Below, in pieces: positions 2,110 through 41,788 of a stretch of DNA of 42,540 nucleotides. Under the pieces are notes generated by a model. That model worked only from the letters and a program-made list of their open reading frames with translations. It did not search any database and had not been told where the DNA came from. The translations under genes and the position numbers were made by a program. Source of the DNA: a virus (Duplodnaviria > Heunggongvirae > Uroviricota > Caudoviricetes); IMG/VR virus record IMGVR_UViG_2541047682_000006; one strand, 5' to 3'. Position 1 is the first letter of the stretch. Each line of letters begins with the position of its first letter.

Positions 2110-2119
2110 AGATATCCTT

Positions 2120-2836: not shown

Positions 2837-4050
2837 TATTTTTCAACCTCTGACAGGGGTAAGTAATGAGATGTCTGTAATGTCAAACTCTCTATCTCAA
2901 AGGAAATGTTGCTGATATTTTGACCTGCAAATTGCGGATGCCACTCAGCGCCAGGGAATAACATTTCCGCAGAAGTAGCAACTATAGGGTCAATAGCATT
3001 AAGATAATGTAACTTATCAGGTGCGCTGTGTAACAGTAACCACTGCAACTCCACTGAAGGATTTGTAAAATGTTCTAATAAATGAAAGTTATTATGTAGT
3101 ACGCTTAGTAAAAAACTGGTTTCGTATACTTCCGTTACATATTTCCACCCCTGATATTCAGGTGTATTTTCATAAACAATACCCATACCTTCACAATCAC
3201 TATGTCGAACTGCTTGTGGTGATAATAGTTGCAAAAGAGACAAAACATCGTCCGCATATTTTTTAACTGGATGACGATTTTGCTTACCTTTTATTTGATC
3301 AATTTCAAGTGAATCACCAACAACATTGAGAGCAATAGTAACATGAGGAATATTATTATTATCACGCAAACTGAATAACCGTAATTTATGTTGCTCAATT
3401 TGATTTGCATAATACTCACCATAACCACCGGTAAGATTTTTTCGATCATCAAACTGGCCTACGCAATGTTGCATATGCCATGATTCATAAGCCATTTCAC
3501 GACGAAGGTTCGAATGACTGGCATCAAACTCAACAATTTTTCCGTCTGGCACATCAAGTATTGACTTTACAGTATTTTGTTCACTCGGCTGCCACCCTTT
3601 CTCGCGTCGTTGAAGCATCTTTTCATGCTCTTCTTCACGCATTCTGAACGCAACGTAGCAGGTTATGCGCTGTAGTTTTGATTCCAGACGGGTACCACAT
3701 TTCCTGGAAAGAAATTCCACCAACTCCCGTTCTTTGGTTAATATTTGTTGATGATCGGTTTCGATATAATAAAGTGTCGCAGTTGATACTGAGGCAGTAT
3801 TAAACTTCGATACCAGCCATTCCGGGATTACATCATCATTTTTATTAAACAGTGAATATTCTGCAAGCGAGTTAATTTGTTGCACCATTGGAAAGTCACT
3901 AATTAGCCATCGATAAAAATGGTTGAGTAACCATTTTTGGATGGTCTCATTATCCTGGCGAAACAGACTTCTTTGCAAAATTGCTGTTTTTACTTCCGGG
4001 GCATTAATTACATCCCTTGCATTATAATTCTGGTGAATATTTCCAGTCAT
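2836..4050 (-). CDS. Hypothetical protein (404 aa), first gene of the three-gene operon
   Basis: Long ORF with ATG start at 4048-4050 and a ~480-bp AT-rich upstream region facing yegQ; no recognisable catalytic motif. Confidence 0.55.
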   Translation of the reverse strand: MTGNIHQNYNARDVINAPEVKTAILQRSLFRQDNETIQKWLLNHFYRWLISDFPMVQQINSLAEYSLFNKNDDVIPEWLVSKFNTASVSTATLYYIETDHQQILTKERELVEFLSRKCGTRLESKLQRITCYVAFRMREEEHEKMLQRREKGWQPSEQNTVKSILDVPDGKIVEFDASHSNLRREMAYESWHMQHCVGQFDDRKNLTGGYGEYYANQIEQHKLRLFSLRDNNNIPHVTIALNVVGDSLEIDQIKGKQNRHPVKKYADDVLSLLQLLSPQAVRHSDCEGMGIVYENTPEYQGWKYVTEVYETSFLLSVLHNNFHLLEHFTNPSVELQWLLLHSAPDKLHYLNAIDPIVATSAEMLFPGAEWHPQFAGQNISNISFEIESLTLQTSHYLPLSEVEK

Positions 4051-4537
4051 AACATCCGCCCGTGTTTATTATATCACTCAAAGCAATAATTGTTGACTAT
4101 AGATTTTTTATCTAAATCAGCATGGTTGCAGGTACATACTCAAGTAAGCCACTCAAGAAAATAACGTAAACTCAATAGTGGCAGCGTCACAAACTTTGGA
4201 AATTATGTCTTATATTTGCAGTTTATTTTAGTGAATAATTGAGATAAATGACATTATTTTACATCCTCAATAATTCAGGCTGTAAGAGGACGGCAAATAC
4301 ATTCATAATTATCAGGGGATGAACATTCAGGAAAGTAGTCAGTATCGTCAACTTTTTCTTTTATCACTACATGAAGATTTCGTGTAGATACTCCCATCTC
4401 TGCCACTTCTCCCCTCACATTTACACTGGAGCTAAACCCGCCGATTGCGCTACAATGCCCGCCCTTAAAGTGGGGGCACTCCCCTAACCGCTTCATCAGG
4501 TGAAGCGGCTCTGACCTGTCATCAGAACGAGAGAATT

Positions 4538-5899
4538 ATGTTTAAACCGGAACTCCTTTCCCCGGCGGGAACGCTGAAAAATATGCGTTACGCTTTCGCT
4601 TATGGCGCAGATGCTGTTTATGCGGGCCAGCCGCGTTACTCCCTGCGTGTACGCAACAACGAATTCAACCACGAAAATCTTCAGCTCGGCATCAATGAAG
4701 CCCACGCGCTGGGGAAAAAGTTTTATGTCGTGGTCAACATTGCACCGCACAACGCCAAGCTGAAAACCTTTATCCGTGACCTGAAACCGGTGGTGGAAAT
4801 GGGGCCGGATGCGCTGATTATGTCCGATCCAGGGCTGATTATGCTGGTGCGTGAACACTTCCCGGAAATGCCAATCCACCTCTCGGTACAGGCTAACGCC
4901 GTAAACTGGGCGACGGTGAAATTCTGGCAGCAAATGGGTCTGACCCGCGTGATCCTCTCTCGCGAACTGTCACTGGAAGAGATTGAAGAGATCCGCAATC
5001 AGGTGCCGGATATGGAGATCGAAATCTTCGTTCACGGCGCGCTGTGCATGGCCTACTCCGGTCGCTGCCTGCTCTCTGGCTATATCAACAAGCGCGACCC
5101 GAACCAGGGCACCTGCACCAACGCCTGCCGCTGGGAGTACAATGTCCAGGAAGGGAAAGAAGATGACGTCGGCAACATCGTACACAAGTACGAGCCGATT
5201 CCGGTGCAAAATGTTGAGCCGACGCTGGGTATCGGCGCGCCAACCGACAAAGTGTTTATGATCGAAGAAGCCCAGCGTCCGGGCGAGTATATGACCGCGT
5301 TTGAAGATGAGCACGGCACTTACATCATGAACTCGAAAGATCTGCGCGCCATCGCCCATGTTGAACGCCTGACCAAAATGGGCGTGCATTCGCTGAAAAT
5401 CGAAGGCCGTACCAAATCTTTCTACTATTGCGCACGCACCGCGCAGGTTTACCGTAAAGCTATCGATGACGCCGCTGCGGGCAAACCGTTCGATACCAGC
5501 CTGCTGGAAACGCTGGAAGGTCTGGCGCATCGTGGCTATACCGAAGGTTTCCTGCGTCGTCATACCCACGACGATTATCAGAACTACGAATACGGTTATT
5601 CGGTTTCTGACCGCCAGCAGTTTGTTGGTGAGTTTACCGGTGAGCGCAAGGGGGAGCTCGCGGCGGTAGCGGTGAAAAATAAATTCTCCGTTGGCGACAG
5701 CCTTGAGCTGATGACGCCGCAAGGCAACATTAACTTTACCCTTGAGCATATGGAAAACGCCAAAGGTGAAGCGATGCCGGTCGCACCAGGCGATGGTTAT
5801 ACTGTGTGGCTCCCGGTGCCGCAGGATCTTGAGCTAAATTACGCGCTGCTGATGCGTAATTTCTCCGGGGAAACCACGCGTAACCCCCACGGTAAGTGA
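4538..5899 (+). CDS. yegQ: U32-family peptidase-like protein YegQ (TrhP, tRNA hydroxylation)
   Basis: 453-aa ORF whose translation (MFKPELLSPAGTLKNMRYAFAYGADAVYAGQPRYSLR...) matches my recollection of E. coli YegQ; the Cys-rich segment CTNACRWEY is typical of the U32 family. Confidence 0.9.
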   Translation: MFKPELLSPAGTLKNMRYAFAYGADAVYAGQPRYSLRVRNNEFNHENLQLGINEAHALGKKFYVVVNIAPHNAKLKTFIRDLKPVVEMGPDALIMSDPGLIMLVREHFPEMPIHLSVQANAVNWATVKFWQQMGLTRVILSRELSLEEIEEIRNQVPDMEIEIFVHGALCMAYSGRCLLSGYINKRDPNQGTCTNACRWEYNVQEGKEDDVGNIVHKYEPIPVQNVEPTLGIGAPTDKVFMIEEAQRPGEYMTAFEDEHGTYIMNSKDLRAIAHVERLTKMGVHSLKIEGRTKSFYYCARTAQVYRKAIDDAAAGKPFDTSLLETLEGLAHRGYTEGFLRRHTHDDYQNYEYGYSVSDRQQFVGEFTGERKGELAAVAVKNKFSVGDSLELMTPQGNINFTLEHMENAKGEAMPVAPGDGYTVWLPVPQDLELNYALLMRNFSGETTRNPHGK

Positions 5900-5983
5900 T
5901 TAATTTCGATTATTTTTCCCGGATGGAAAATTCTTAGAAACCGATCACATACAGCTGCATTTATTAAGGTTATCATCCGTTTC

Positions 5984-6070
5984 GCTGAAAAACATAACCC
6001 ATAAAATGCTAGCTGTACCAGGAACCACCTCCTTAGCCTGTGTAATCTCCCTTACGCAGGCTTATTTTTT
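5984..6070 (+). ncRNA. cyaR: CyaR (RyeE) Hfq-dependent sRNA; its 3' terminator end overlaps the prophage attL core
   Basis: 87-nt sequence GCTGAAAAACATAACCCATAAAATGCTAGCTGTACCAGGAACCACCTCCTTAGCCTG...CTTATTTTTT matches the CyaR sRNA as I recall it, ending in a hairpin plus T-tract; position between yegQ and ogr is as in E. coli K-12. Confidence 0.8.
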
Positions 6071-13506: not shown

Positions 13507-14091
13507 TTAAAAGAGACCTTCTATATCGACTTCAATGCCCAAATAACGGACTGTGCTTTCCAGTTTCTTATGGCCCAACAGAAGTTGGATCACCCGGAGA
13601 CTCTTGGTTTTCTTGTAGATTAAGTAAGGTTTTGTTCTTCTCATGGAATGTGTGCTGTACAGCGAATCTTCGAGACCAAGCTTTTCTACCCACCCATGAA
13701 AAATTCGGTTGTATTGCCGGGTTGATATATGGTGGTTAGTTCCGACCCGAGAGCGGAACAGGAAGCCTTTACTATGCCAGTTGCCGAGCTTTATCAATGC
13801 AGTAACCGCTTCCCTTGTCCCTTTGGTTATCTCAAATTGGACAGGGCTGCCGGTTTTCTGTTGCAACACCGTTGCTCTGCTTGAGACAGAACTGCCATAT
13901 GCAGCATCTGATACTTTGAGTTTGACCAAATCACAGCCCCGTAGCTTAGTGTCCAAAGCCATGTTGAACAGAGCTAGATCGCGTGTTTTACCTTCCAACT
14001 CAAGTCTAATCCGGATCCCCCAGATATGAAATATCTGAAGTGGCCTTTTTTGACCGATGGTACGGTCTTTATTCCACGGTGACGTTTTCAT
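13507..14091 (-). CDS. Small tyrosine site-specific recombinase (FimB/FimE-like invertase/integrase catalytic domain, ~194 aa)
   Basis: Translation carries the tyrosine-recombinase motifs in order: Arg box (ALDTKLRGCDLVKLKVSD), HSMRRT (H-x-x-R), LLGH, and RYLG (nucleophile Tyr). ATG at 14089-14091 with AGGAG Shine-Dalgarno; the track ORF starts upstream at a TTG. Confidence 0.7.
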   Translation of the reverse strand: MKTSPWNKDRTIGQKRPLQIFHIWGIRIRLELEGKTRDLALFNMALDTKLRGCDLVKLKVSDAAYGSSVSSRATVLQQKTGSPVQFEITKGTREAVTALIKLGNWHSKGFLFRSRVGTNHHISTRQYNRIFHGWVEKLGLEDSLYSTHSMRRTKPYLIYKKTKSLRVIQLLLGHKKLESTVRYLGIEVDIEGLF

Positions 14092-14197
14092 ATTCAAATC
14101 TCCTGCAATGTGGGAGATTTGAGTATGGTTGTCTCTCAAGAGCGAAAATAAGTCAACTATCACTAGTTGTTGCGCATGTACGTATTCTGTCAATTAA

Positions 14198-15040
14198 TTA
14201 TTGACAATCATCAATTCTGGAATGATCAAAATCATCATATCGAATTATAGTCTGGTTGACTGTATCTATTGTTGGTGTCATTTCTGTTATAATATCCTGA
14301 TAACCTAAAGAGTTAAATACATTTACTAAGGCCTCACACCGAAGGGCCGTAGCAATTACAAAATTATAAATTGCCAGCCGTTTATTTTCTTGTTTAACTG
14401 CAAGAATGAATTCGATAGCAGTATTTTCATCACTTTGGATTGCATTATATAGAGATACTATATTTACCATATCATCAGAGAATGTATGTATTGAATCACA
14501 AAGGGGAACGTAATGGGCATGATAGTGTGTTTCCCAGCCAATTAATTCAAAAAGTCTTCTGGTTCCTGGATATTCAGGTGTATTTGGCCACAATCTATTA
14601 AATAGATCAGTTAGTTCTTTTCCCATGCGAATCCTTTCATTTGCTGCTGGATTAGTCATTCCTTTGGATTTTAAACACTCCAGCCACCGTTTTCCATTAC
14701 TATGAACTAATTTCTTACTAGCCTTGAGTAATGCTTGTGCATTTTCGCCATCATCTATTGCTATATAAAATTGATTGGCAGCCTGTTCTATTATAACCCT
14801 AGCTAATACTTCCGATGCTGAAAAGGCTCCTATATTCAAAGAAGAGATAGCCTGATTACTAAGTTCATTCAGTACATTAAAGTACTGTAAGACCATCAAT
14901 TTTTGTTCCACACCCTTTAGGTTGTCTATTTTATTTTTATGCTCCTCAAATTTTGCATGGATATATTTATTTATCGCGGCTATTTTTTTTACATCTTCGT
15001 CAAGATCAAACGGGCAACGTCCAAACAATTCTTTTTTCAT
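14198..15040 (-). CDS. Hypothetical protein (280 aa), AT-rich cargo gene directly upstream of the recombinase
   Basis: ORF with ATG start and AGGAG Shine-Dalgarno; 4-nt gap to the recombinase ORF; preceded by a 420-bp noncoding leader containing the repeat copies. Confidence 0.6.
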   Translation of the reverse strand: MKKELFGRCPFDLDEDVKKIAAINKYIHAKFEEHKNKIDNLKGVEQKLMVLQYFNVLNELSNQAISSLNIGAFSASEVLARVIIEQAANQFYIAIDDGENAQALLKASKKLVHSNGKRWLECLKSKGMTNPAANERIRMGKELTDLFNRLWPNTPEYPGTRRLFELIGWETHYHAHYVPLCDSIHTFSDDMVNIVSLYNAIQSDENTAIEFILAVKQENKRLAIYNFVIATALRCEALVNVFNSLGYQDIITEMTPTIDTVNQTIIRYDDFDHSRIDDCQ

Positions 15041-26560: not shown

Positions 26561-27274
26561 TCAGCAGTTCGTCATCAGGGCGTCACCGCCACCACCGGTG
26601 GCCTTGCTGCGGCGCTGCTGGGTCAGACTTTCGGTGTGGTCGAGACTGTTTTTCAGGCGGGTGAATGCCTGGCTGGTTTCATCCGCCCTGTCAGTCACCT
26701 CCTGCTTAAGTGCGGAAAAGGCGGTTTCCATCTCAGCGAGGCGCTGCTCAGTGGCGCTCAGTTTTTCCTGCACATGTTCAGCAACAGCGGTCACCGCTTC
26801 ATGCACGTCATTCAGACGGGCATCATCGCTGGCCTGTTTGCGGCCAAAAATGGACTTCACCTTTTCGGTCAGGACGGTGAACACTGTTTCAGGCAGGTCT
26901 TCAAATTCCAGCTCAACAGGCGTTGCCACTGAAATCAGGTTTTCAGGGCTTAATTTGAAGCGGTTCAGGGGGTTGTGTTTTGCCGTGCGGCAGAATTCCA
27001 GGTATTCCGTGCCGAGGCTTGCCGGGTCATCGGTGACGGCCAGACCCACCAGATAACATTTGCCGGTGTTGGCAAAGTTCGGCTGAATTTCCATTGAGGT
27101 GTAGACCTTCTGCGCGGCCTTGTTCATCGCGATAAGGTCATCGGTCGGGGTGATTTTCGCAAACAGCGCCCATTTGCCTTTCAGCGCCGAATCATCGTCA
27201 ATCTTTTCGGCCTTAAGTTCGGCCACATCGCCATAACGTTTAAAAATACCGTCAGGCAGGATGCCGCGCAGATG
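26561..27274 (-). pseudogene. O: Capsid scaffold gene O, C-terminal fragment (gene interrupted by an IS element)
   Basis: Track ORF 26561..27310 matches gpO from ...HLRGILPDGIFKRYGDVAELKAEK onward; its first 12 codons (27275-27310) are read from IS sequence. Confidence 0.75.
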
Positions 27275-27360
27275 TTGCGTATTACCGTGAAGGAGATCGG
27301 TGAGTAACATCGATGGAGATCGGTTCGTGTCACTTTCACAGAACCGTTTTTAAATTACCT

Positions 27361-28110
27361 TCACTGATCTCCTTCGGTCAACGGAGATTGTATTTTCCGC
27401 ATTGATTCTCCTTTAAGTTCGATCTTGATACTGCCATGAACCAGTCGATCTAGGATGGCATCCGCATGTGTGGAGTCTCCGATCATTTTGTACCAGTTTT
27501 CCACCGGCAACTGGCTCACTACGATGATTGAGCCTCGTTGGTACATCAGATCCACTATTTCCAGCAGGTCGCTACGCTGTTCTGATGAGAGAGGTTCCAG
27601 CCCCCAGTCATCCAGAAGCAGCAGATCGCTATTATTCAGCCTGGTCAAAAGTTTGCTGTATCTTCCATCAGCATGCCCCTGATAGCACTGTTCCATCAGC
27701 GCTTTAAGGCGATAATAGTAGACCTTGTATCCCTGTCGGCAGGCATTATGACCAAGTGCACATGCCAGGAACGTTTTACCGCTGCCGGTGGCCCCGGTCA
27801 GTAAAATATTTTGTTTCAGGGTTAACCAGTTTCCCTGACTGAGTGAACGGATGAGGGCCCTGTCCAGCCCTCTATTGTTACGATAATCCAGCTTTGATAA
27901 CTCAGCATTAAGTCTGAACCGTGCATGTTTGATCAGACGCTCTGCCTTCCTGTTTTCACGGCAGGTTAGTTCTTCTGCTGTCAGTAATGACAGGCGTTCT
28001 TCGAAGCCCAGCTCCTGGTATGTGCCCGGTTGAGCAAGTTGCTTTTTAAGCGCATCACGGAAGCCGGTGAGTTTAAGTGCGGTCAGTTGTTCGTAAAGAT
28101 GATTCATCAT
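27361..28110 (-). CDS. istB: IstB-like ATP-binding transposition helper (IS21 family)
   Basis: 249-aa ORF with Walker A (GATGSGKT) and Walker B (LLLLDDWG), typical of IstB. Confidence 0.85.
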   Translation of the reverse strand: MMNHLYEQLTALKLTGFRDALKKQLAQPGTYQELGFEERLSLLTAEELTCRENRKAERLIKHARFRLNAELSKLDYRNNRGLDRALIRSLSQGNWLTLKQNILLTGATGSGKTFLACALGHNACRQGYKVYYYRLKALMEQCYQGHADGRYSKLLTRLNNSDLLLLDDWGLEPLSSEQRSDLLEIVDLMYQRGSIIVVSQLPVENWYKMIGDSTHADAILDRLVHGSIKIELKGESMRKIQSPLTEGDQ

Positions 28111-28121
28111 TGGATCCCGTA

Positions 28122-29663
28122 TCAGTGGTAATACTCACTGCCGCGTACGTTTTCGTGTTCCATCGTGGATAACAGATCTGGTTTTGGATCCTGAACAGGT
28201 TGTTTATCCAGACCTTTTTCCAGGATCGATTTAATACCTGACAGACGCCATACCTTTGTTTTCAGAGCTCTTGCACATGCTGCATTAAGTCTGGCTTTAC
28301 TGTATTTTTTATGAAGGTTCAGGAGTCCAAGGCAGAAGCGATAGCTTTGTTCCGGATGTGGACGAGAGTTCAGTATATGAAGCACATAACTATGAGTTTC
28401 ACTGCCTATGTGCCCCGCCCATTCCAGAAGACGCTCTGGCGTCCAGGTGGCATGCTGTCGATGAGCTTCAGGCATGTGCTCGTTGCGGGTACTGTAGCCA
28501 TAAGTACGCTTGCGCGGGTGCACAGCAACCTCCTGCCCCTGATTGAAGAGTCTTACCAGTTCTCCGGAGATCCATGCTTCCAGTTGCTGGCCTAACAGCG
28601 AACATGGAACCGAGTAGTAATGTTTGTCGATTTCCACGTGGTAATCGGCATGAACTCTGACTTTCTTCACCAGGGTGTAACTGTAACTGGCTTCAGGAAG
28701 AGGCTTCAGTGCGGGTTTATCAAGCTGGATGAAGAGTTCTGCACGTGAATAACCCAACTTCTGCATTATTTTGTTATTCAGTCTTTCCAGCAACTCCCGA
28801 ATGCGCTGATTAAGCGATGCAAGGCTGTAGAAGATCTCATGCCTGATTCGGGCCATGATCCAGCGTTCAACAACCTGAACGCCAACTTCAGCTTTGGCTT
28901 TATCTTTCGGTTTACGTGGCCGCGCAGGCAAAACTGCGACATTATAATGCTCAAGCATCTGCTGGTAGGTAGGGTTAACGTCAGGATCATACTTACATGC
29001 CCTGGATGTGGCGCTTTTCAGATTGTCCGGAACAACAAGTTCAGGAACGCCACCCAACCACTGGAAGCAGCGAACATGACTCATCACCCAGTCTTCAAGC
29101 TGCTGAGACCAGGTGGCCTCTGCCCATGTGTAACTTGATGCCCCGAGAACAGCTACGATGACCTGAGCAGTTCTTATTTCTCCGGTCTCAGGGTCGGTAA
29201 CGCCAACGGTAGGTCCACAGTAATCAACGAAAAGTTTTTCGCCAGCTTTATGTACCTGACGCATTGATGGTGAAGTGGTTTTGAGCCATTCACGGTACAT
29301 CCGGCAGTAATGGTTATAGCTGTAAAAACCGCCTGGATTACGCTCACAGTATTCTTCCCAGAGTAGCTGCAGCGTCACGCATTTATTACGCAGTTCCCGG
29401 TGTACTGTAGCCCAGTCAGGCAGAGAGTGCTTCTTCATCTTAACCTGGGTCTGAAGGAACGCATGTTTTAGTTTTGTATCATCCCATCCTGTAGGTAAGG
29501 GCCACTGCTTTATGCCAAGTTGAGCCGCCCGATTAGCATATCTGGATACAACGGAAGGGGAGATTGCAAGACTACGACCAATTTGTCGATGGCTGAGTCC
29601 AACACCGTATTTAAGCCTAAGAATTTCTTTAAGTTTTCTCATAGAAATTGGAACTGTTGGCAT
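28122..29663 (-). CDS. istA: IstA-like transposase (IS21 family, DDE)
   Basis: 513-aa ORF with N-terminal HTH region and a central DDE-type catalytic core, immediately upstream of istB. Confidence 0.8.
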   Translation of the reverse strand: MPTVPISMRKLKEILRLKYGVGLSHRQIGRSLAISPSVVSRYANRAAQLGIKQWPLPTGWDDTKLKHAFLQTQVKMKKHSLPDWATVHRELRNKCVTLQLLWEEYCERNPGGFYSYNHYCRMYREWLKTTSPSMRQVHKAGEKLFVDYCGPTVGVTDPETGEIRTAQVIVAVLGASSYTWAEATWSQQLEDWVMSHVRCFQWLGGVPELVVPDNLKSATSRACKYDPDVNPTYQQMLEHYNVAVLPARPRKPKDKAKAEVGVQVVERWIMARIRHEIFYSLASLNQRIRELLERLNNKIMQKLGYSRAELFIQLDKPALKPLPEASYSYTLVKKVRVHADYHVEIDKHYYSVPCSLLGQQLEAWISGELVRLFNQGQEVAVHPRKRTYGYSTRNEHMPEAHRQHATWTPERLLEWAGHIGSETHSYVLHILNSRPHPEQSYRFCLGLLNLHKKYSKARLNAACARALKTKVWRLSGIKSILEKGLDKQPVQDPKPDLLSTMEHENVRGSEYYH

Positions 29664-29852
29664 AGGTATCCTTTACCGGAATGGCAAAAGATACAGATCA
29701 ACACACCTGTGAAGTTCCAATAACATTGATGGAGATCACTGAATAACAAAATGAGTCAAAAGTGATCTCCATCGATGTTATTCAGCGATCTGTTCAAATG
29801 TTATTACCCGATCTCGATGGAAGTTATTGAGTGATCTCCTTTCATGAAAATA

Positions 29853-30001
29853 CGCAGATGTTCCAGGTTAATGCGGCAACCGTAGACACGCGGGTCAAAG
29901 GTTTCAGCCATTTCCTGAATATCCTGCGCACTGATGACACGCCCGTCACAGGTGTCACCCTCAACGCCGATACGAAAGAATTTTGAGACTTTTTTTGCCA
30001 T
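29853..30001 (-). pseudogene. O: Capsid scaffold gene O, N-terminal fragment
   Basis: Track ORF 29804..30067 contains MAKKVSKFFRIGVEGDTCDGRVISAQDIQEMAETFDPRVYGCRINLEHLR from the ATG at 29999-30001, then runs into IS sequence to a stop at 29804. Confidence 0.75.
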
Positions 30002-30174
30002 TGTCAGGAGTCCTGAATAGTGATTAGAGGAGTCACATGTCGGCATCAGTTTCCCGACGATGCGCATCCTCCGCCATCAGTCCCGGATGGCTTATCACTG
30101 ACACAACAGCACCTTAGCGAATCGCAGGGCGCGACTCAGTAGCCTTGCCGTGTATTCATCACGGCGAGGTATTC

Positions 30175-31947
30175 ATGACCATCACCACAGACACCACTCT
30201 TTTACACGACCCGCGTCGTCAGGCGGCGCTGCTGTACTGGCAGGGATTTTCCGTGCCGCAGATTGCCGCCATGTTGCAGATGAAACGCCCGACAGTGCAG
30301 AGCTGGAAACAGCGCGACGGCTGGGACAACGTTGCCCCCATCAGCCGTGTCGAAATGAGCCTGGAAGCGCGGCTGACCCAGCTCATCATCAAACCGCAGA
30401 AAACCGGCGGTGACTTCAAGGAAATTGACCTGCTGGGACGCCAGATTGAACGACTGGCACGGGTAAATCGTTACAGCCAGACCGGCAACGAGGCAGACCT
30501 TAATCCGAACGTCGCTAACCGCAACAAAGGCGGGCGGCGCAAACCGAAAAAAAATTTTTTCAGTGACGAGGCCATCGAAAAGCTGGAGCAGATTTTCTTT
30601 GAGCAGTCTTTCGACTATCAGTTGCACTGGTATCGCGCCGGGCTTGAGCACCGCATCCGCGATATCCTGAAATCCCGCCAGATTGGCGCGACGTTTTATT
30701 TTTCCCGCGAGGCGCTGCTGCGCGCCCTGAAAACCGGCCATAACCAGATTTTTCTGTCGGCCAGTAAAACGCAGGCGTATGTGTTCCGCGAATACATCAT
30801 CGCCTTTGCCCGGCTGGTTGACGTTGACCTGACCGGTGACCCGATTGTCCTGGGCAATAACGGCGCAAAACTGATTTTTCTCGGCACCAACTCCAACACC
30901 GCACAGAGCCATAACGGCGACCTGTACGTCGACGAGATTTTCTGGATCCCGAATTTTCAGGTACTGCGTAAGGTGGCATCAGGTATGGCCTCACAGAGTC
31001 ACCTGCGCTCGACCTATTTCTCCACCCCGTCCACGCTGGCGCACGACGCCTACCCGTTCTGGTCAGGTGAACTGTTCAACCGGGGACGCGCCAGCGCCGC
31101 CGAACGCGTGGAAATCGACGTCAGTCATAACGCCCTTGCCGGTGGGCTTCTCTGTGCGGACGGCCAGTGGCGGCAGATTGTCACCATTGAGGACGCCCTG
31201 AAAGGTGGCTGCACGCTGTTCGACATTGAACAGCTCAAACGCGAAAACAGCGCCGACGATTTTAAAAACCTGTTCATGTGTGAATTTGTTGACGACAAGG
31301 CGTCGGTGTTCCCGTTCGAGGAGCTGCAACGCTGCATGGTCGACACGCTGGAAGAATGGGAAGACTATGCGCCGTTTGCCGCCAATCCGTTCGGCTCCCG
31401 CCCGGTCTGGATTGGTTACGACCCGTCACACCGTGGCGACAGCGCCGGATGCGTGGTACTGGCACCGCCGGTGGTGGCCGGTGGCAAATTCAGAATACTT
31501 GAGCGTCACCAGTGGAAAGGCATGGACTTTGCCACTCAGGCGGAATCCATCCGCAAACTCACCGAAAAATACAACGTCGAATACATCGGTATTGATGCCA
31601 CCGGCCTCGGTGTCGGCGTGTTCCAGCTCGTGCGCTCGTTCTATCCCGCCGCGCGCGATATCCGCTACACGCCGGAAATGAAAACCGCAATGGTGCTCAA
31701 GGCAAAAGACGTCATCCGCCGTGGCTGTCTGGAATATGACGTCAGCGCCACCGACATCACCAGCTCGTTTATGGCTATCCGCAAGACCATGACCAGCAGC
31801 GGACGCAGCGCCACTTATGAGGCCAGCCGCAGCGAGGAAGCCAGCCACGCCGACCTCGCCTGGGCGACCATGCACGCCCTGTTAAATGAGCCACTCACCG
31901 CCGGTATCAGCACCCCGCTGACATCCACCATTCTGGAGTTTTACTGA
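30175..31947 (+). CDS. P: Terminase large (ATPase) subunit (P2 gpP-like)
   Basis: ~590 aa from the ATG at 30175 (MTITTDTTLLHDPRRQAALLYWQGFSVPQIAAM...); divergent from O across the late-promoter region. Confidence 0.85.
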   Translation: MTITTDTTLLHDPRRQAALLYWQGFSVPQIAAMLQMKRPTVQSWKQRDGWDNVAPISRVEMSLEARLTQLIIKPQKTGGDFKEIDLLGRQIERLARVNRYSQTGNEADLNPNVANRNKGGRRKPKKNFFSDEAIEKLEQIFFEQSFDYQLHWYRAGLEHRIRDILKSRQIGATFYFSREALLRALKTGHNQIFLSASKTQAYVFREYIIAFARLVDVDLTGDPIVLGNNGAKLIFLGTNSNTAQSHNGDLYVDEIFWIPNFQVLRKVASGMASQSHLRSTYFSTPSTLAHDAYPFWSGELFNRGRASAAERVEIDVSHNALAGGLLCADGQWRQIVTIEDALKGGCTLFDIEQLKRENSADDFKNLFMCEFVDDKASVFPFEELQRCMVDTLEEWEDYAPFAANPFGSRPVWIGYDPSHRGDSAGCVVLAPPVVAGGKFRILERHQWKGMDFATQAESIRKLTEKYNVEYIGIDATGLGVGVFQLVRSFYPAARDIRYTPEMKTAMVLKAKDVIRRGCLEYDVSATDITSSFMAIRKTMTSSGRSATYEASRSEEASHADLAWATMHALLNEPLTAGISTPLTSTILEFY

Positions 31948-32981
31948 TGAGCAAGAAAAAAGGGAAAACACCGCAACCTGCGGCAAAAAAAATGACCGCC
32001 AGCGCCCCGAAAATGGAGGCATTCACCTTTGGTGAGCCGGTGCCGGTACTCGACCGCCGTGACATTCTGGATTACGTCGAGTGCATCAGTAACGGCAGAT
32101 GGTATGAGCCGCCGGTCAGCTTTACCGGTCTGGCGAAAAGCCTGCGTGCTGCCGTGCATCACAGCTCACCGATTTACGTTAAACGCAATATTCTGGCCTC
32201 GACATTTATCCCGCATCCGTGGCTTTCGCAACAGGATTTCAGCCGCTTTGTGCTGGATTTTCTGGTGTTCGGTAATGCGTTTCTGGAAAAGCGTTACAGC
32301 ACCACCGGTAAGATCATCAGACTGGAAACCTCACCGGCAAAATATACCCGCCGTGGCGTGGAGGAGGATGTTTACTGGTGGGTGCCGTCCTTCAACGAGC
32401 CGACACCTTTCGCGCCCGGTTCCGTGTTTCACCTGCTGGAGCCGGATATTAATCAGGAGCTGTACGGCCTGCCGGAATATCTCAGCGCCCTTAACTCTGC
32501 CTGGCTGAATGAGTCGGCCACGCTGTTCCGCCGCAAGTATTACGAAAACGGCGCGCATGCCGGATACATCATGTACGTCACCGATGCCGTGCAGGACCGC
32601 AACGATATCGAAATGCTTCGCGAAAACATGGTGAAGTCGAAAGGCCGCAATAACTTTAAAAACCTGTTTCTCTATGCCCCACAGGGGAAAGCCGACGGCA
32701 TTAAAATTATCCCGCTCAGTGAAGTGGCGACGAAGGACGATTTTTTTAATATCAAAAAAGCCAGCGCCGTTGACCTGCTGGATGCGCACCGCATCCCCTT
32801 TCAGTTGATGGGCGGCAAGCCGGAAAACGTCGGGGCTCTGGGTGATATTGAGAAAGTGGCAAAGGTCTTTGTCCGCAATGAACTTATCCCGCTACAGGAC
32901 AGGATTCGGGAAATAAACGGCTGGCTCGGTCAGGAGGTCATCCGCTTTAAAAACTACTCACTGGACACTGACAACGGCTGA
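31947..32981 (+). CDS. Q: Portal protein (P2 gpQ-like)
   Basis: 344-aa ORF; ATG overlaps the P stop (ATGA); followed by a terminator and cos. Confidence 0.85.
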   Translation: MSKKKGKTPQPAAKKMTASAPKMEAFTFGEPVPVLDRRDILDYVECISNGRWYEPPVSFTGLAKSLRAAVHHSSPIYVKRNILASTFIPHPWLSQQDFSRFVLDFLVFGNAFLEKRYSTTGKIIRLETSPAKYTRRGVEEDVYWWVPSFNEPTPFAPGSVFHLLEPDINQELYGLPEYLSALNSAWLNESATLFRRKYYENGAHAGYIMYVTDAVQDRNDIEMLRENMVKSKGRNNFKNLFLYAPQGKADGIKIIPLSEVATKDDFFNIKKASAVDLLDAHRIPFQLMGGKPENVGALGDIEKVAKVFVRNELIPLQDRIREINGWLGQEVIRFKNYSLDTDNG

Positions 32982-32986
32982 ACATC

Positions 32987-33008
32987 GCCGCCTGCGGGCG
33001 GCTTTTTT
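32987..33008 (+). terminator. Rho-independent terminator downstream of Q
   Basis: GCCGCC/GGCGGC stem with 4-nt loop followed by TTTTTT at 33003-33008. Confidence 0.6.
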
Positions 33009-33150
33009 ACACCCCGTCATCACGCCCTCACACGCTCACCACCGCACAAAACACCCCGCAGACACACCAGCGCCTCAACGGGCAGACTAAGCGCCGTCAC
33101 GACGCGCTGAGACGCTGAAAAAATAAAATCAGCACCACCGCCAGCGCGCA

Positions 33151-33169
33151 GTGCTTTCCCCGCCTCGCC
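33151..33169. other. cos site: 19-nt P2-type cohesive end sequence
   Basis: Plus strand GTGCTTTCCCCGCCTCGCC is the exact reverse complement of the P2 cohesive end GGCGAGGCGGGGAAAGCAC as I recall it; lies next to the portal gene as in P2. Confidence 0.75.
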
Positions 33170-33484
33170 CGCCCGCTTCATGGGGCGGTTTTAATGCAGT
33201 TGCATGATGAAACTGAAATCACATCAGCACTGACCGAAACTGACAAAAAGAATAGTATCTGACACATGCAAAAACACGCACTTAATATACGCCTATCTAT
33301 AGCTCCTACAGGATTGTCAAAAAACGACCAACTCGTCATAGCGTAAACACATTTGGCTCAACGAACACTTACGTTATATGCCTCTTGAACATATCAAAGT
33401 CTTAAGGTAGATCTTTACCACTAAGTGGCTATATTAAGCTGCTTTTTTACATACAATAAAAGCTTTATCGTATGAGGCATAAAA

Positions 33485-35701
33485 ATGGAACTTAGATTAA
33501 AAAATGTTACCAGTTATAAGAAAGACGCCTTCACAATACTGAATCTTGAAAAAAGAGTAAACATACTATACGGCCAAAATGGTTGTGGCAAATCTACCAT
33601 TTCAAATTATTTCTACGACTCTACACACACAGATTATAACGAGTGTGAATGTACCCTTCTTGACAATTACAAACCTCTTGTTTACAACACTAAATTTATT
33701 GAAGATAACTTCTATAATGCACAGGAACAAAAAGGTGTTTTTACATTAAGTAAAGAAAATGCAGATATTGAAAAACAATTAATTGAAAAAGAAGCAATTA
33801 AACAGCAACTCACAGAGCAATATAGACAAAAAAAAGGAGTGTTATTGAAATTAGAAGCAGAAATGGAAAAAAAAGAAAATGAATACATCGAATCGATCTG
33901 GAAAAAAACAGAACCAATCAGAAACTCTGTACTAAAAACCTTAATGAAAGGTAAAGTTGGCTATAAAAGACCTTTTTTTGAGATGATAAAATCATCCTCA
34001 CCAATCACCTTTATTAATTTAAATGATATAGCAAAAGAATACTCTATACTATTAGAAAATAGAAACAATGAAACCGCATTAATAACTCCTTTACATCCAT
34101 ATACCCCATCAATTGATGATGTAAATACATTAGCAACACCTATAATAGATACAAGCAATAGCTATTTATCAGAAACCATTAATAAACTTCATAATCTTGA
34201 CTGGGTAAAAAAAGGTAAAGAACATTATTTAGACGGTTCTACATGTCCGTTTTGTCAGGAAAAAACTATTAGTCACGAATTTTTAAATGCCCTTAAATCA
34301 ATATTTGACGAAAGTTATTCAAAGAAAGTAAAACAGCTCTCAGATATAAAGTCAGTTTATGAGAAAAATACCATATATCATTTTAACGAAATACAAAACA
34401 ATATATCATCATGTGCACTAATCAATGAGAAAGATAAAGAGAACATTATTTCCAATATTAAAATATTGCAAAACATTGCAGAAAAAAATTTAATAAACAT
34501 TATTGATAAGATCAACAATCCATCAACATGCGTTACATTAGAAATTGATAAAGAACTAGAAAATCATGTTCAGGAAAGCATAGGCGCTGTTAACAAGAAA
34601 ATAAGAGACATAAATGATAAGGTTAAAAAACTCAAAGAGTATGAGAATAAAATCGGAAAACAAGTTTGGGGGGCTCTCCATGCTTTTTGCAGCGATGATT
34701 TAGAGAATTTATCCAAACACAAAGAAAAATTCTTTGATATCAAAAAGAAAGTTCATGATGAATTAAATAATATTGAGCAACAAGGAAAAGAAAATAATCT
34801 CACAATAAAAGCATTGCGAGATAAAATATCTAACATTGATTCTACGATAGACTCAATAAACACCCATTTAAAAAATCTAGGGATCTCTGGTTTTTGTATT
34901 GAAAAACATGCAGAAAGAAAAGATATGTACATTATATCTCGACCAGGGCATACAAAAAACCAAAATGTTTATAGATCTCTTAGCGAAGGTGAAAAAACAC
35001 TAATAACGTTTCTTTATTTTTTAGAGTGCTGTAAAGGTAAAACCGATAAAAATGATACCGATAGCAGGGATATTTTTATTGTTATTGACGATCCAATATC
35101 TAGTCTATCGCAAAACTATGTCTACGACATCGCATCAATTATTCATCACCACATTATAAAAAATGAATTAACAAAGAAGGTATTAATCCTTACTCACAAT
35201 CTTTATTTCTTTCATGAACTTATTAAGCTATCTCCTAAAAGCAGAGAAGACAAACTATTTAAGAAAAACTATTATCTAGGTAGAGTAACGAAAAATGATT
35301 TTAGTATAATTACTGAAATACAAAAAAACAGCATACAGAATGAATATCAATCTTTGTGGCAAATATTAAAAGATGCAAAAGATGGCAAAGCAAACAAAAT
35401 CATAATACCGAATATTATGAGAAACATACTAGAATATTATTTTGCATTTGTTCATAGAACAGATGCTCTACAAGATGAATTAACAAAGTTGGCACGCGAC
35501 GATAGCAACAGTGATTTCAAAGCATTCTACAGATACATTAACAGAGGTTCTCACTCTGATGCGGTAAATATTACTGATATGGGCGACATAGACCCAGATA
35601 AATACCTAAAACAATTGAGAACAATATTTTCAGCTACTGGTGACGAAATGCATTATTTAAAAATGATGGACGAACTAGAAGAGGAAAACGTTACCGCTTA
35701 G
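33485..35701 (+). CDS. RloC/PrrC-like ABC ATPase (738 aa) with coiled-coil insert carrying a CxxC motif; putative anticodon nuclease or abortive-infection ATPase
   Basis: Walker A GQNGCGKST near the N-terminus; long Lys/Glu-rich coiled-coil region containing CPFC; ABC signature-like LSEGEK, Walker B IFIVIDDP, H-loop LTHN; C-terminal MRNILE...H arrangement (R-x3-E then His). AT-rich single gene at the P2 old/tin position with AGG Shine-Dalgarno. Confidence 0.5.
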   Translation: MELRLKNVTSYKKDAFTILNLEKRVNILYGQNGCGKSTISNYFYDSTHTDYNECECTLLDNYKPLVYNTKFIEDNFYNAQEQKGVFTLSKENADIEKQLIEKEAIKQQLTEQYRQKKGVLLKLEAEMEKKENEYIESIWKKTEPIRNSVLKTLMKGKVGYKRPFFEMIKSSSPITFINLNDIAKEYSILLENRNNETALITPLHPYTPSIDDVNTLATPIIDTSNSYLSETINKLHNLDWVKKGKEHYLDGSTCPFCQEKTISHEFLNALKSIFDESYSKKVKQLSDIKSVYEKNTIYHFNEIQNNISSCALINEKDKENIISNIKILQNIAEKNLINIIDKINNPSTCVTLEIDKELENHVQESIGAVNKKIRDINDKVKKLKEYENKIGKQVWGALHAFCSDDLENLSKHKEKFFDIKKKVHDELNNIEQQGKENNLTIKALRDKISNIDSTIDSINTHLKNLGISGFCIEKHAERKDMYIISRPGHTKNQNVYRSLSEGEKTLITFLYFLECCKGKTDKNDTDSRDIFIVIDDPISSLSQNYVYDIASIIHHHIIKNELTKKVLILTHNLYFFHELIKLSPKSREDKLFKKNYYLGRVTKNDFSIITEIQKNSIQNEYQSLWQILKDAKDGKANKIIIPNIMRNILEYYFAFVHRTDALQDELTKLARDDSNSDFKAFYRYINRGSHSDAVNITDMGDIDPDKYLKQLRTIFSATGDEMHYLKMMDELEEENVTA

Positions 35702-35924
35702 GCCGCATATTATCGTTTTGGGTAAGAACGACGGTGCTTACGCACCGTCTCCCAACGCCCAAAGCGGTAGCGGTTGTACTGGCGTACATTCACCAGCTTT
35801 AACATGAGGCAATCTCCATGCCAGCACTATTGTTGCCAATAGCAGCCTTTATACCCTTTGTACAAAGCTAATACCAAGAGTAATGCAAAGTAGATGTCCC
35901 AAGCGGTAACGGGGCTATTCTATG

Positions 35925-38216
35925 TCAAACACAGAAAAAATCAAAGCGCCCTATGAATCCCCCCCAACCATCAGCGACCGGATACGTGAATTTTTTCCCG
36001 TCATAATTTACGGTCGCTCCACGCGCCAGCGCCTCAAGCTCCCATCGCTGCGGCATGATACCGTTCTGAGCAAGGTCAACGCGGATACGGGTGATTTGCA
36101 ATCGTTCAGACCTGGTCAGTCTGGCAGATGGTGCAATTTCATGCGGTTTTAACGGGCTTCCGTTTCTTTGCTGACGGTTTGGCGTTCTCAGGTCGTATTT
36201 TAATGCGCCCCTGAGCGCCCTCACGACCTCCGGTTCATTCCATTCAATAACACCGTCATCAACCAGATTAAGCACTGCTGCGGCGTGCTCAGAAGGTGTG
36301 GGAGCCGGTAACGAAGTATCACCACCGGTGAGCTTTCCACAGTTATTGACAGGACTCCGAGGCGCGGCGATGCCGCTTTTTAAAGTCAAAGGCTCAACGA
36401 CCGGAACTTTCGGCACAATGCGCCAGTCCGTCGTTCTGGTGATATGAATATGACGCGCGCCGAGATGCGGCGCGTAAATGCCGACCACTCTCTCGACTTC
36501 TTCCTCGTACTCGTTAACGTCATCCGACGGGCTACGGGCAACCCTGACAGTCTGACAATCGCGCGGGACATTTGCCCCACCCTGCGCGCTGATATACAAC
36601 GCAAAATCACCACTGTCTGCGGCAGCGCGAGCAGCCTCGACGCGTTCGTCAAACTCATCAGCAATACTGACGCCGCGAGGCAATTTGCGTAGTTCACGGT
36701 AAGCCCCCATTGTCGGCAGGCCAACCGTTTTAAATTGCGGAATTCGCCACGTTGACGCCCATGCGGTAACAGCCGCAGCAGTATCTTTCAGCGGCCTGCC
36801 GGTATCATTATCGAGCTGACCATCCAGTGCATAGCCATCGATGTTTTTTGAGATGTATTTTGCGATATACCCCGCAGCACCGCCCCGGTTAAGATGTTTT
36901 GCCTGAAAACGGTTTCGCGCGGCTCCTCTTTCGTCGCCATCCTCTTTGAGCGCATAGCGACGCATGATTTCGATAATCTGGTTACGCTGGCGTGGATTAC
37001 AAAAAAGCATCATATGCCAGTGCGGCGTTCCGTCGTGGTGTGGCTCGACGACACGCAAACCGTAGACCTGTAAATCATTATCCTTGAATGCCGTGCGCAT
37101 CAGGCTCCAGATATGGCAGAGATAACGCTGCGCATCCTTTGGATTAAATGCCTCATCGTTCCAGCCGTGATTTAGCTGGACGGTTTTACTTTCGCCTTTT
37201 CCGACCTGACGTGTCGGGTGATACTTTGACGGCGCGGTAAGCGTGATAAACATCCCCACATCACCCTCTGCGGCGGCGTAACGCTCAATACCGGCAATGG
37301 TGTTCATCAGCTCCATCCGGCGAATTTCAGGATTAGAAATACTGCCCATCACCTTACTGATAAGGTCGATGCGTTCGCCGGTTTCCCTGTTTTCAAGGTC
37401 ACACGATTTAAGAAATTCCAGATTTGCCTGGCGGCGTGCACGCACATCACGAATGGCATGTTTACTGGCATAAGGTGAACGGTCTTTATTGACCTCCCCG
37501 ACAGCAATCAGTAACGCCTCATGCCAGCGCATACGCTGGCCTTTAAGCTGACTAATCCACCACTCATCGTTAAACAGGCGGGCAATGGCAGAATATGCCT
37601 GCCTCGTGGTCATCTGTCCTTTACGGTATTTTTTCCAGTAGAGCGGGGAAATATTGAAAGCACGTGCAGCGCCAGCAACATGACCATAGAGGTGAGCCTG
37701 CGCCTCATCCGTAAACAGCGATTCTTTTTCGCCATGCGCATCCACCCAGGCATCGCAGAGTTCCTCATACATCATGAAAAGCTGCGATGAGATACGGGCG
37801 GCAAACTTTTTCAGCTCCTTATCATTCATCCCCGGCAGACGCGCATAATGGTCACGCTCTGCCAGAAACAGCAACGACGCGTCGGTGTTCATTTCATGGC
37901 GCTGATTCACACGCTCAATGCGCGGCCATAAACGACGCTGAAAAGTGGATGTGAGGAAATAAAACCCGTGCACCGGGCTTTTATTGCGCCGGATGTAGTC
38001 ATAGCGTGAAGTAAACAGCGAGCGCAAAAAGTAAGGCAGGCGGTTAATCGTGGATAAAACACCTTGCACCTGACGCATCTCGTCACGTGTAAGGGGTCTT
38101 TCGCGCCCGACGGCCTCGCGTGGCGCGTTCCATGCATAAGCACCGGTAAACGTCTTACCGGTGCCTGCGGTAAATGCTGACGGAGGGACAAAACGCCCGG
38201 AGGCTTTAACGGCCAT
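35925..38216 (-). CDS. A: Replication initiation endonuclease (P2 gpA-like, rolling-circle)
   Basis: Track ORF 35925..38258 begins at a TTG; the ATG at 38214-38216 (MAVKASGRFVPPSAF...) gives ~763 aa, close to P2 gpA; contains an H-x-H motif (HWHMMLF) typical of rolling-circle initiators. Confidence 0.8.
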   Translation of the reverse strand: MAVKASGRFVPPSAFTAGTGKTFTGAYAWNAPREAVGRERPLTRDEMRQVQGVLSTINRLPYFLRSLFTSRYDYIRRNKSPVHGFYFLTSTFQRRLWPRIERVNQRHEMNTDASLLFLAERDHYARLPGMNDKELKKFAARISSQLFMMYEELCDAWVDAHGEKESLFTDEAQAHLYGHVAGAARAFNISPLYWKKYRKGQMTTRQAYSAIARLFNDEWWISQLKGQRMRWHEALLIAVGEVNKDRSPYASKHAIRDVRARRQANLEFLKSCDLENRETGERIDLISKVMGSISNPEIRRMELMNTIAGIERYAAAEGDVGMFITLTAPSKYHPTRQVGKGESKTVQLNHGWNDEAFNPKDAQRYLCHIWSLMRTAFKDNDLQVYGLRVVEPHHDGTPHWHMMLFCNPRQRNQIIEIMRRYALKEDGDERGAARNRFQAKHLNRGGAAGYIAKYISKNIDGYALDGQLDNDTGRPLKDTAAAVTAWASTWRIPQFKTVGLPTMGAYRELRKLPRGVSIADEFDERVEAARAAADSGDFALYISAQGGANVPRDCQTVRVARSPSDDVNEYEEEVERVVGIYAPHLGARHIHITRTTDWRIVPKVPVVEPLTLKSGIAAPRSPVNNCGKLTGGDTSLPAPTPSEHAAAVLNLVDDGVIEWNEPEVVRALRGALKYDLRTPNRQQRNGSPLKPHEIAPSARLTRSERLQITRIRVDLAQNGIMPQRWELEALARGATVNYDGKKFTYPVADGWGGFIGRFDFFCV

Positions 38217-38481
38217 ATGAGCCAAAAGCCTCTGAACAACGCTTGCTGAGTTGCTCAACCTGCGCGTTTAAATCAGCAAAAGACTTTGCGCTTCCGGTCA
38301 GAATATCGTGATGCATCAGGCCGGAAACGAGCTGGCTTAATTTCGGGTAATAACCAACCACCGCCAGCCATTCCTGACCGGCGTTTTTACCGCTTTCCGC
38401 TCTCTTTTTCTCGTGGAGAATAAACTGAAAGCTGTCACTGGTAACGACATAACGTTCGCCAATTTCAATACGAATACTCAT
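38206..38481 (-). CDS. Phage hypothetical protein (P2 early-region small orf)
   Basis: 91-aa ORF with ATG start, immediately upstream of A. Confidence 0.55.
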   Translation of the reverse strand: MSIRIEIGERYVVTSDSFQFILHEKKRAESGKNAGQEWLAVVGYYPKLSQLVSGLMHHDILTGSAKSFADLNAQVEQLSKRCSEAFGSYGR

Positions 38482-40774: not shown

Positions 40775-41788
40775 ATGGCAATCAAAAAACTCGATGATGG
40801 TCGATATGAAGTGGACATCCGCCCTACTGGACGTAACGGAAAACGCATCCGTAGGAAGTTTGATAAGAAAAGCGAAGCTGTCGCTTTCGAAAAATACACG
40901 TTGTACAACCACCACAATAAAGAATGGCTATCAAAACCAACAGACAAACGACGTCTGTCGGAACTGACACAGATCTGGTGGGATTTAAAGGGTAAACACG
41001 AAGAGCATGGGAAATCTAATCTTGGAAAAATTGAAATCTTCACAAAAATAACGAATGACCCATGCGCATTTCAAATCACGAAATCCCTTATCAGCCAGTA
41101 CTGCGCCACCCGAAGAAGCCAGGGTATTAAACCTTCGAGTATCAATCGTGATTTAACATGTATTAGCGGCATGTTTACAGCCCTGATTGAAGCGGAGTTA
41201 TTCTTTGGTGAGCACCCTATCAGAGGGACAAAGAGGCTTAAGGAGGAAAAACCAGAAACAGGCTATCTCACACAGGAAGAAATTGCCTTACTGCTTGCAG
41301 CACTTGACGGCGACAATAAAAAGATTGCGATTCTTTGCCTGAGTACAGGAGCACGTTGGGGAGAAGCAGCTCGTTTGAAAGCAGAAAATATCATCCATAA
41401 CCGCGTCACGTTTGTTAAAACGAAAACAAACAAACCACGCACCGTCCCGATTTCAGAGGCTGTTGCCAAAATGATCGCGGATAACAAACGAGGTTTTTTA
41501 TTCCCTGATGCTGATTACCCTCGCTTCAGACGAACAATGAAAGCAATAAAACCGGATTTGCCAATGGGGCAAGCCACACATGCACTAAGGCACAGCTTTG
41601 CCACTCATTTCATGATTAATGGAGGAAGTATTATCACGCTACAACGGATACTAGGTCACACGCGGATTGAGCAAACTATGGTTTACGCTCATTTTGCGCC
41701 AGAGTACCTTCAGGACGCCATTTCTCTTAATCCGCTAAGAGGTGGTACTGAGGCCGAGAGTGTCCACACAGTGTCCACAGTAGAGTAA
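40775..41788 (+). CDS. int: Tyrosine integrase (P2 Int-like)
   Basis: 337-aa ORF with GGAGG Shine-Dalgarno; catalytic motifs R...HALRHSFAT...LGH...Y; adjacent to attR. Confidence 0.9.
   Translation: MAIKKLDDGRYEVDIRPTGRNGKRIRRKFDKKSEAVAFEKYTLYNHHNKEWLSKPTDKRRLSELTQIWWDLKGKHEEHGKSNLGKIEIFTKITNDPCAFQITKSLISQYCATRRSQGIKPSSINRDLTCISGMFTALIEAELFFGEHPIRGTKRLKEEKPETGYLTQEEIALLLAALDGDNKKIAILCLSTGARWGEAARLKAENIIHNRVTFVKTKTNKPRTVPISEAVAKMIADNKRGFLFPDADYPRFRRTMKAIKPDLPMGQATHALRHSFATHFMINGGSIITLQRILGHTRIEQTMVYAHFAPEYLQDAISLNPLRGGTEAESVHTVSTVE

Follow-up and report, generated by a model that had tools for sequence, protein, structure and literature searches.

The 42,540-nucleotide stretch of viral DNA analysed here (the window, IMG/VR record IMGVR_UViG_2541047682_000006) includes a P2-like prophage in which the interval between cos and replication gene A, the place of old and tin in phage P2, holds a single AT-rich gene for a protein of the AAA_13 family. 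The protein joins a Rad50-like ABC ATPase to a C-terminal domain of HEPN fold, and probably serves as a tRNase of RloC type that aborts phage infection. The features that define the locus are the following (coordinates are those of the window):

33151..33169, minus strand: the P2 cos cohesive-end 19-mer GGCGAGGCGGGGAAAGCAC, an exact match equivalent to cosR of P2, the left anchor of the hotspot.
33199..35954, no strand: the variable AT-rich cargo cassette of the P2 old/tin hotspot, bounded by loss of identity to P2 and a drop in G+C.
33485..35701, plus strand: the AAA_13 protein gene, 738 amino acids (aa), with an ATG start; an ABC ATPase with a helical CxxC-containing insert and a C-terminal HEPN domain.
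35925..38258, minus strand: P2 replication gene A, the right anchor of the hotspot; an open reading frame (ORF) matching P2 gpA and convergent with the AAA_13 gene.

The cos 19-mer has an expected count of 0 in shuffled sequence. Identity to P2 runs out after TTTTAATGCA (33189-33198), just past the hairpin that adjoins cos, and similarity to P2-like phages near the cassette is confined to 33000-33272 and 35955-36200, being lost on the left near 33198-33272 and regained near 35955. Taking the loss at ~33198 and the return at ~35955 as its limits, the cassette is therefore ~2.7 kb long. Its G+C content is 0.28-0.31, against 0.50-0.59 outside; the AAA_13 ORF itself stands at 29.7%, against 54.6% in the flanking P, Q and A genes, and the chance of 738 stop-free codons at that composition is ~1e-28. 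To its left lie the terminase gene P (30145..31947) and the portal gene Q (31947..32981), both on the plus strand; the product of gene A, to its right, is annotated "replication endonuclease" in Escherichia coli APEC O1. The one-gene AT-rich insert between cos and gene A that the sequence-only reading had placed at 33200-35701, in the position of old and tin, is thus where it was said to be.

In reference P2, the corresponding interval is filled by A, orf91, tin, old and cosR, and the old-tin mRNA begins on the cos side and heads towards A. Since both the interval and the direction of transcription agree, the AAA_13 gene holds the place and orientation of old. What characterizes cargo of this hotspot is all present: variable DNA running from cos to A, transcription from the cos side and a prophage that is otherwise P2-like. 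The stretches that separate the ATG from cos and the stop codon from A hold just ORFs of 20-53 codons, all without support as a second gene, and the "hypothetical" protein listed beside WP_000423308 in the table of Rousset 2022 has no counterpart identified in this cassette; the AAA_13 gene is the sole cargo of the old/tin hotspot in this prophage. No ORF of hsd size occurs in the prophage, and neither cassette nor prophage contains a restriction-modification (R-M) gene.

Within the AAA_13 gene, the following motifs and domains can be located, all on the plus strand:

33572..33598: Walker A (P-loop) GQNGCGKST, aa 30-38, with K36.
33752..34879: helical insert of the ATPase, of coiled-coil type, aa ~90-465, delimited on the AlphaFold model.
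34244..34255: CPFC, aa 254-257, a putative zinc hook and the sole CxxC of the protein.
34979..34996: ABC signature LSEGEK, aa 499-504.
35078..35095: Walker B and start of the D-loop, IVIDDP, aa 532-537.
35192..35200: H-loop THN, aa 570-572.
35318..35668: C-terminal HEPN-like domain, aa 612-728, a predicted RNase.
35420..35434: R646-x3-E650 (RNILE, aa 646-650, within N643-x-M-R-N-I-L-E), part of the predicted catalytic triad.
35552..35554: H690 (in NRGSH, aa 686-690), completing the predicted triad.

The five ATPase and hook motifs are those recognized in the 738-aa protein from the letters alone, and each lies at the kind of place that had been reported. The accompanying estimate of a ~450-residue coiled-coil insert needs trimming: there is a helical insert at that point, at ~aa 90-465 in the AlphaFold model, so that the figure was a slight overstatement; Walker A and signature are 460 aa apart, and the insert itself accounts for ~375 aa. 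The full-length model (mean pLDDT, the predicted local distance difference test score, 83.5) builds an ABC head from the two ends of the stretch 1-610, with long helices at 90-141 and 403-447, a central helical part in which CPFC lies on an inter-helix loop, and an all-helical C-terminal domain. The protein thus has an intact Rad50-like ABC head, interrupted by a helical insert whose CxxC is invariant. Its last 127 residues are modelled as a HEPN-like fold. In the PDB, the full-length model comes closest to Rad50, to condensin/SMC heads and to Lamassu LmuB, AriA and PtuA; in a viral structure library, it comes closest to proteins of gp46/SbcC type. By sequence, the PDB holds no relative of the whole protein: a search with the full-length profile returned SMC, Rad50 and AriA heads only and no PrrC or RloC structure, and one with the C-terminal domain profile gave only chance-level matches to RhoGAP (E=0.008).

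Profile searches leave little doubt as to the family. Pfam AAA_13 (PF13166) matches with 374.3 bits (cutoff 36, E=2e-111), aligning aa 17-716 with model positions 11-713 of 713; PDC-S06, a one-gene candidate system in PADLOC, is matched along the whole protein (E=1.3e-254, best sub-model PDLC04886), and PHROG 2801, of function unknown, matches end to end. An NCBIfam search returned nothing relevant, and no TOPRIM or OLD family was matched in Pfam, NCBIfam or PADLOC. The PADLOC PrrC model matches aa 490-730 (E=1e-12). It scores 43.2 bits on aa 480-600 and 54.4 bits on aa 480-738, where the alignment reaches model position 353 of 372; the 11 bits gained from aa 601-738 indicate that the C-terminal domain contributes to the score. 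The protein belongs to the AAA_13 ABC-HEPN superfamily (RloC/PrrC/APECO1_4465), as its earlier description as RloC/PrrC-like had it.

The suggestion, made in the same place, that the C-terminal domain might be a divergent nuclease has to be given up. The last 138 aa alone find the C-terminus of AAA_13 (model positions 599-713 of 713, E=1.7e-20) and are therefore a regular domain of the family rather than a divergent one, and a profile of the domain collects 2,467 clusters at 50% identity, 1,030 of them at E <=1e-10. In nearly all cases it ends a protein of 720-760 residues, so that domain and architecture travel together.

A homologue search covering 5.8 billion proteins returned 118 relatives, 51 of which were aligned, down to 18% identity. 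G30, G35, K36, C254, C257, G502, E503, D535, D536, P537, T570, H571, N643 and R646 are invariant in this alignment, and P255 and F256 are at least 90% conserved. E650 is kept in 49 of the 51 homologues and replaced by Asp in the other two; H690 is present in all except one, and S689 in 49. The R-x3-E...H arrangement pointed out in the first reading of the sequence is thus a conserved triad of the family. The alignment takes in ~795-aa proteins of a clade named "wobble nucleotide-excising tRNase", here called the RloC-size clade, which are 18-22% identical to the window protein and have the N-x-M-R-x-I-L-E and S-H motifs in common with it; their best PDC-S06 sub-model is PDLC04887, and not PDLC04886 as for the window protein. 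Five ~795-aa seeds brought in more than 1,277 relatives, many of them again named "wobble nucleotide-excising tRNase", with no Geobacillus protein among the 120 matches listed. One metagenomic relative (P0071, 681 aa, 46% identical over 70% of the query) has an extra PF04976 domain ahead of AAA_13, which could be a fusion or an artefact of gene calling.

For RloC of Geobacillus kaustophilus (GkaRloC), an anticodon nuclease that excises the wobble nucleotide, mutagenesis has addressed K44 in Walker A, C291 in the zinc hook and D572 in Walker B (PMC2610378, PMC3458546), and has found the triad R692, E696 and H737, equivalent to R320, E324 and H356 of EcoPrrC, to be essential (PMC2610378). K36, C254, D535, R646, E650 and H690 of the window protein are colinear with these six GkaRloC residues. 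The first Cys and the Walker B Asp are 281 aa apart in the window protein, in GkaRloC numbering and in a 793-aa homologue (P0128); the Arg-to-Glu spacing is 4 in both the window protein and GkaRloC, and the Glu-to-His spacing 40 in the former and 41 in the latter. The HEPN-fold domain keeps the Arg-Glu-His triad that, by mutagenesis, neither GkaRloC nor EcoPrrC can do without.

Published work and defence databases already list the protein, assign it to its family and place it in the P2 hotspot. It is 100% identical to WP_000423308 of E. coli APEC O1, annotated "AAA family ATPase", and one source names the exact sequence "wobble nucleotide-excising tRNase". Forty-four complete E. coli genomes, that of APEC O1 among them, carry the cassette at 99-100% identity and encode the identical protein, and alleles ~70% identical in DNA are found in ~72 further genomes; an allele whose protein is 58% identical (L002) occupies the matching slot of another P2-like prophage, and a 32% identical relative in Pseudomonas adjoins an integrase. 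Anantharaman et al. (2013) grouped PrrC, RloC and APECO1_4465 as ABC-ATPase-HEPN fusions, describing the APECO1_4465 group of avian pathogenic E. coli as prophage-borne and giving it apart from RloC-like proteins (PMC3710099). From the agreement in strain (APEC O1), ABC-HEPN architecture, prophage location and gi-implied genome position, we infer that locus tag APECO1_4465 (gi 117623091) is the identical APEC O1 copy of the window gene. In Table S5B of Rousset 2022, the single AAA_13 gene, labelled "RloC-like", is P2-hotspot system no. 5, the fifth commonest with 420 occurrences, and WP_000423308 appears 13 times in the P2-hotspot locus table (PMC9122126). With protein and hotspot context both catalogued, the idea that this may be a new variant of a translation-targeting abortive-infection ATPase does not hold: the APEC O1 protein is identical, the family was described in 2013 (PMC3710099), and the accession is in Rousset 2022 (PMC9122126).

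Around the gene, three further features bear on its expression:

33474..33477, plus strand: Shine-Dalgarno sequence GAGG, 7 nucleotides (nt) 5' of the ATG, kept in L002.
33385..33413, plus strand: a weak candidate promoter, TTGAAC-17 nt-TAGATC, with hexamers and spacing common to the L002 allele.
35730..35749, no strand: a perfect 8-bp G+C-rich hairpin, GACGGTGC-TTAC-GCACCGTC, between the stop codons of the AAA_13 gene and gene A.

The upstream regions of the window gene and of L002 (~5880..6000) have TTGAA(C/T)-17 nt-TAGATC and GAGG-ATAAAA-ATG in common. As these signals are common to both alleles and unlike the P2 old promoter region, the cassette seems to carry its own expression signals. 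A generic promoter scan of the AT-rich DNA gave 13 sites where 11.4 were expected, not above chance. In the 5' leader, a hairpin resembling a terminator (33423-33444) was considered and dropped: its stability is about that of shuffled sequences (z = -0.9 and +0.6), and it is absent from the L002 allele. The hairpin at 35730..35749, which has no T run on either strand and was not called in the terminator scan, may terminate transcription in both directions or mark a boundary of recombination.

Elsewhere in the prophage, the capsid scaffold gene has been broken by an insertion sequence (IS):

27361..29663, minus strand: an IS21-family element, with genes for an IstB ATPase of 249 aa (E=2e-67) and a transposase of 513 aa that has rve and Mu-transposase C-terminal domains.
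26561..27310 and 29804..30067, minus strand: two fragments of the GPO scaffold gene O, one of which covers model positions 1-49 and the other 40-268.

P2 gene O, split by the IS21-family element in the window, is intact in APEC O1; the window prophage is probably unable to make capsids. A second variable locus of P2-like phages, at 13507..15040 on the minus strand, lies by gene order between tail genes G and FI, in the Z/fun position. Its two products, a DUF5677 protein of 280 aa and a short tyrosine-recombinase-like protein of 228 aa (Phage_integrase, E=1.5e-17), are not matched by any PADLOC model, and the locus may be uncharacterised cargo. The host flank (1..5899) has ORFs on the minus strand for DUF4034 (715 aa), DUF1266 (238 aa) and PcfJ-like (404 aa) proteins and a peptidase U32 gene on the plus strand (4538..5899); its ORFs gave no PADLOC matches. 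The prophage integrase (40775..41788, plus strand) is at the end opposite this flank.

As far as can be told from sequence, the protein would work like RloC. The function we favour, at a probability of about 0.65 and by analogy with its characterised relatives, is that of a prophage-borne abortive-infection nuclease in a single polypeptide, a tRNase defence of RloC type within the RloC/PrrC/APECO1_4465 ABC-HEPN family. In GkaRloC, mutations in the hook unleash the nuclease, and ATP hydrolysis together with DNA, best with ends, activates it (PMC3458546); RloC removes the wobble nucleotide of tRNA, and its anticodon nuclease, turned on by a DNA-dependent ATPase, is modulated by zinc (PMC2610378, PMC3458546). 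Following this example, the window protein might form a dimer, joined at the ATPase heads and the CxxC hooks, that stays silent and latent in the lysogen; DNA ends, or damaged or replicating phage DNA, could then free the HEPN domain with hydrolysis of ATP, and the freed domain would cleave tRNA anticodon loops, stopping translation so that the infected cell yields no phage. Two recent reports are in keeping with this scheme: P2 Old, from the same slot, is described as an abortive tRNase that its ABC ATPase controls and that answers to DNA defects, and silencing by H-NS has been reported for AT-rich cargo of a P2-like prophage. The AAA_13 gene, being AT-rich, is probably damped by H-NS in the same manner as other P2-like prophage cargo.

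Several points weigh against this proposal. Substrate, cleavage chemistry, trigger and phage phenotype are all drawn by analogy from a relative that is ~20% identical, and the equivalence of residues to GkaRloC and EcoPrrC comes from published numbering, spacing and profile matches, with no direct alignment. The PADLOC PrrC model has no match to the C-terminal domain alone, and the loop bearing H690 is poorly modelled (pLDDT <50 at aa 689-698). Protection against phage by RloC has never been shown in a native host (PMC3458546). A preprint presents an E. coli PDC-S06 ATPase called by PADLOC as outside DefenseFinder, which suggests that the RloC profile applied there does not take in the clade. 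The searchable literature yielded no experiments on the protein or its close relatives; no test of the AAA_13 system appears in the Vassallo 2022 selection, in Rousset 2022 (main text), in the 2026 paper on the P2/P4 hotspot or in the work that mentions PDC-S06.

Some of the alternatives keep the nuclease and change what it does. It could be an ATPase-gated HEPN defence RNase with another target (mRNA, rRNA or another part of tRNA) or a trigger other than DNA ends; this is rather unlikely, given that the RloC-size clade has the triad with the same flanking motifs and that both characterised members of the superfamily, of which there are only two, are anticodon nucleases. A bolder version, possible but on balance doubtful, would make the P2-hotspot AAA_13 clade a functionally distinct branch of RloC/PrrC: an antiphage HEPN RNase with its own trigger, and possibly its own RNA target or cleavage pattern. 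That trigger could be, for example, phage replication intermediates, or DNA ends under inhibition of RecBCD, as proposed for Old. A role as a toxin that helps to maintain the prophage or its cassette, in the manner of an addiction module or other selfish element and with no protection against other phages, would be in keeping with AT-rich mobile cargo within a recombination hotspot, with the toxicity of over-expressed RloC and PrrC and with the lack of an antitoxin or partner gene; the same lack cuts the other way, since a single gene without a labile antidote has no obvious addiction mechanism, and the slot in P2-like phages holds verified defence systems (old, tin, PARIS and others), which makes a purely selfish role highly improbable.

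The remaining alternatives remove the nuclease or its activity altogether. If the protein were an ATPase of Rad50/SbcC type for repair or recombination in P2 or its host, and its helical C-terminal domain a binding module without catalysis, the resemblance of the full-length model to Rad50, SMC and phage gp46-like proteins would find a ready explanation, and some HEPN domains are indeed non-catalytic (PMC3710099). Such a role is very remote, however: the cassette has no nuclease partner of Mre11/SbcD type, retention of Arg, Glu and His across the family is not expected of a binding module, and the slot is dispensable for growth of P2, old and tin being non-essential. It is also conceivable, if improbable, that the gene is intact yet silent or decaying cargo of a defective prophage, with no current function in the strain. 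Disruption of gene O by the IS21-family element, a G+C content of 29.7% that makes the gene a likely H-NS target, and the absence of any promoter above chance would be in line with this; against it stand an open frame of 738 codons in stop-rich AT-rich DNA (P ~1e-28), identity of 99-100% in 44 complete genomes and the intactness of every catalytic motif. The ORF is intact although the IS broke the scaffold gene of the prophage.

Enzymes of RloC type are widespread, yet they lack a demonstrated phage-defence phenotype or a known natural trigger. With its own upstream region, no partner gene and a slot in which old, tin and PARIS have been characterised, the prophage copy would be a convenient model. 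What activates a tRNase built from a Rad50-like ATPase and a HEPN domain during infection? Can phages escape it by tRNA repair, or by means of their own tRNAs? Should the P2-hotspot clade prove to be a distinct branch, the old slot would be one that repeatedly recruits tRNases gated by ABC ATPases but of unrelated folds (TOPRIM in Old and PARIS, HEPN here), and E. coli would offer a tractable system with the first natural phage-defence phenotype for RloC-type enzymes.

Among known systems, P2 Old is the canonical occupant of the slot between cos and A. It too has an ABC ATPase, and a 2026 preprint describes it as an abortive tRNase gated by that ATPase and responsive to DNA defects. Its effector, however, is a TOPRIM domain, whereas that of the window protein has the HEPN fold with no TOPRIM detected, and Old lacks the long helical CxxC insert that the window ATPase has. 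The cassette shows no match to the sequence of old. An Old-like reading was rejected on the absence of a TOPRIM domain and on an all-helical, HEPN-like C-terminus, in agreement with the initial judgement, from the letters alone, that this is not an Old homologue.

The likeness to EcoPrrC consists in an N-terminal ABC ATPase domain followed by a C-terminal HEPN nuclease with the Arg-Glu-His triad, and in the alignment of the PADLOC PrrC model from the signature motif to position 353 of 372. EcoPrrC is a tRNA-Lys anticodon nuclease held by the type Ic R-M enzyme EcoprrI. PrrC (~400 aa) has no coiled-coil or CxxC insert, in contrast to the 738-aa window protein with its ~375-aa insert; it is always found inside hsd genes and is triggered by T4 Stp, whereas the window gene is flanked by P2 portal/cos and gpA. 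Because the insert is present and linkage to hsd is absent, the protein is not PrrC.

GkaRloC resembles the window protein in its layout, and the CxxC hook within a helical insert of the ATPase is a trait of RloC in the sense of Davidov and Kaufmann (2008). Walker A, the helical insert with CxxC, signature, Walker B and H-loop come in matching order, and the C-terminal domain has Arg-x3-Glu followed by His ~40 residues on; both proteins belong to one Pfam family, and neither is linked to R-M genes. At 738 aa, the window protein is ~60 residues shorter than members of the RloC-size clade (~790-810 aa), with ~30 aa fewer in the N-terminal arm of the insert and ~10 aa fewer in the linker from Walker B to the nuclease domain. 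It is carried by a prophage, unlike GkaRloC, by analogy with which its putative activity, response to zinc and dependence on DNA are proposed. The closest counterpart is the group known variously as APECO1_4465, the AAA_13 system of Rousset, PDC-S06 and PHROG 2801, which is alike in architecture, prophage location and predicted HEPN RNase, and from which the window protein shows no difference in sequence (WP_000423308 of APEC O1 being 100% identical).

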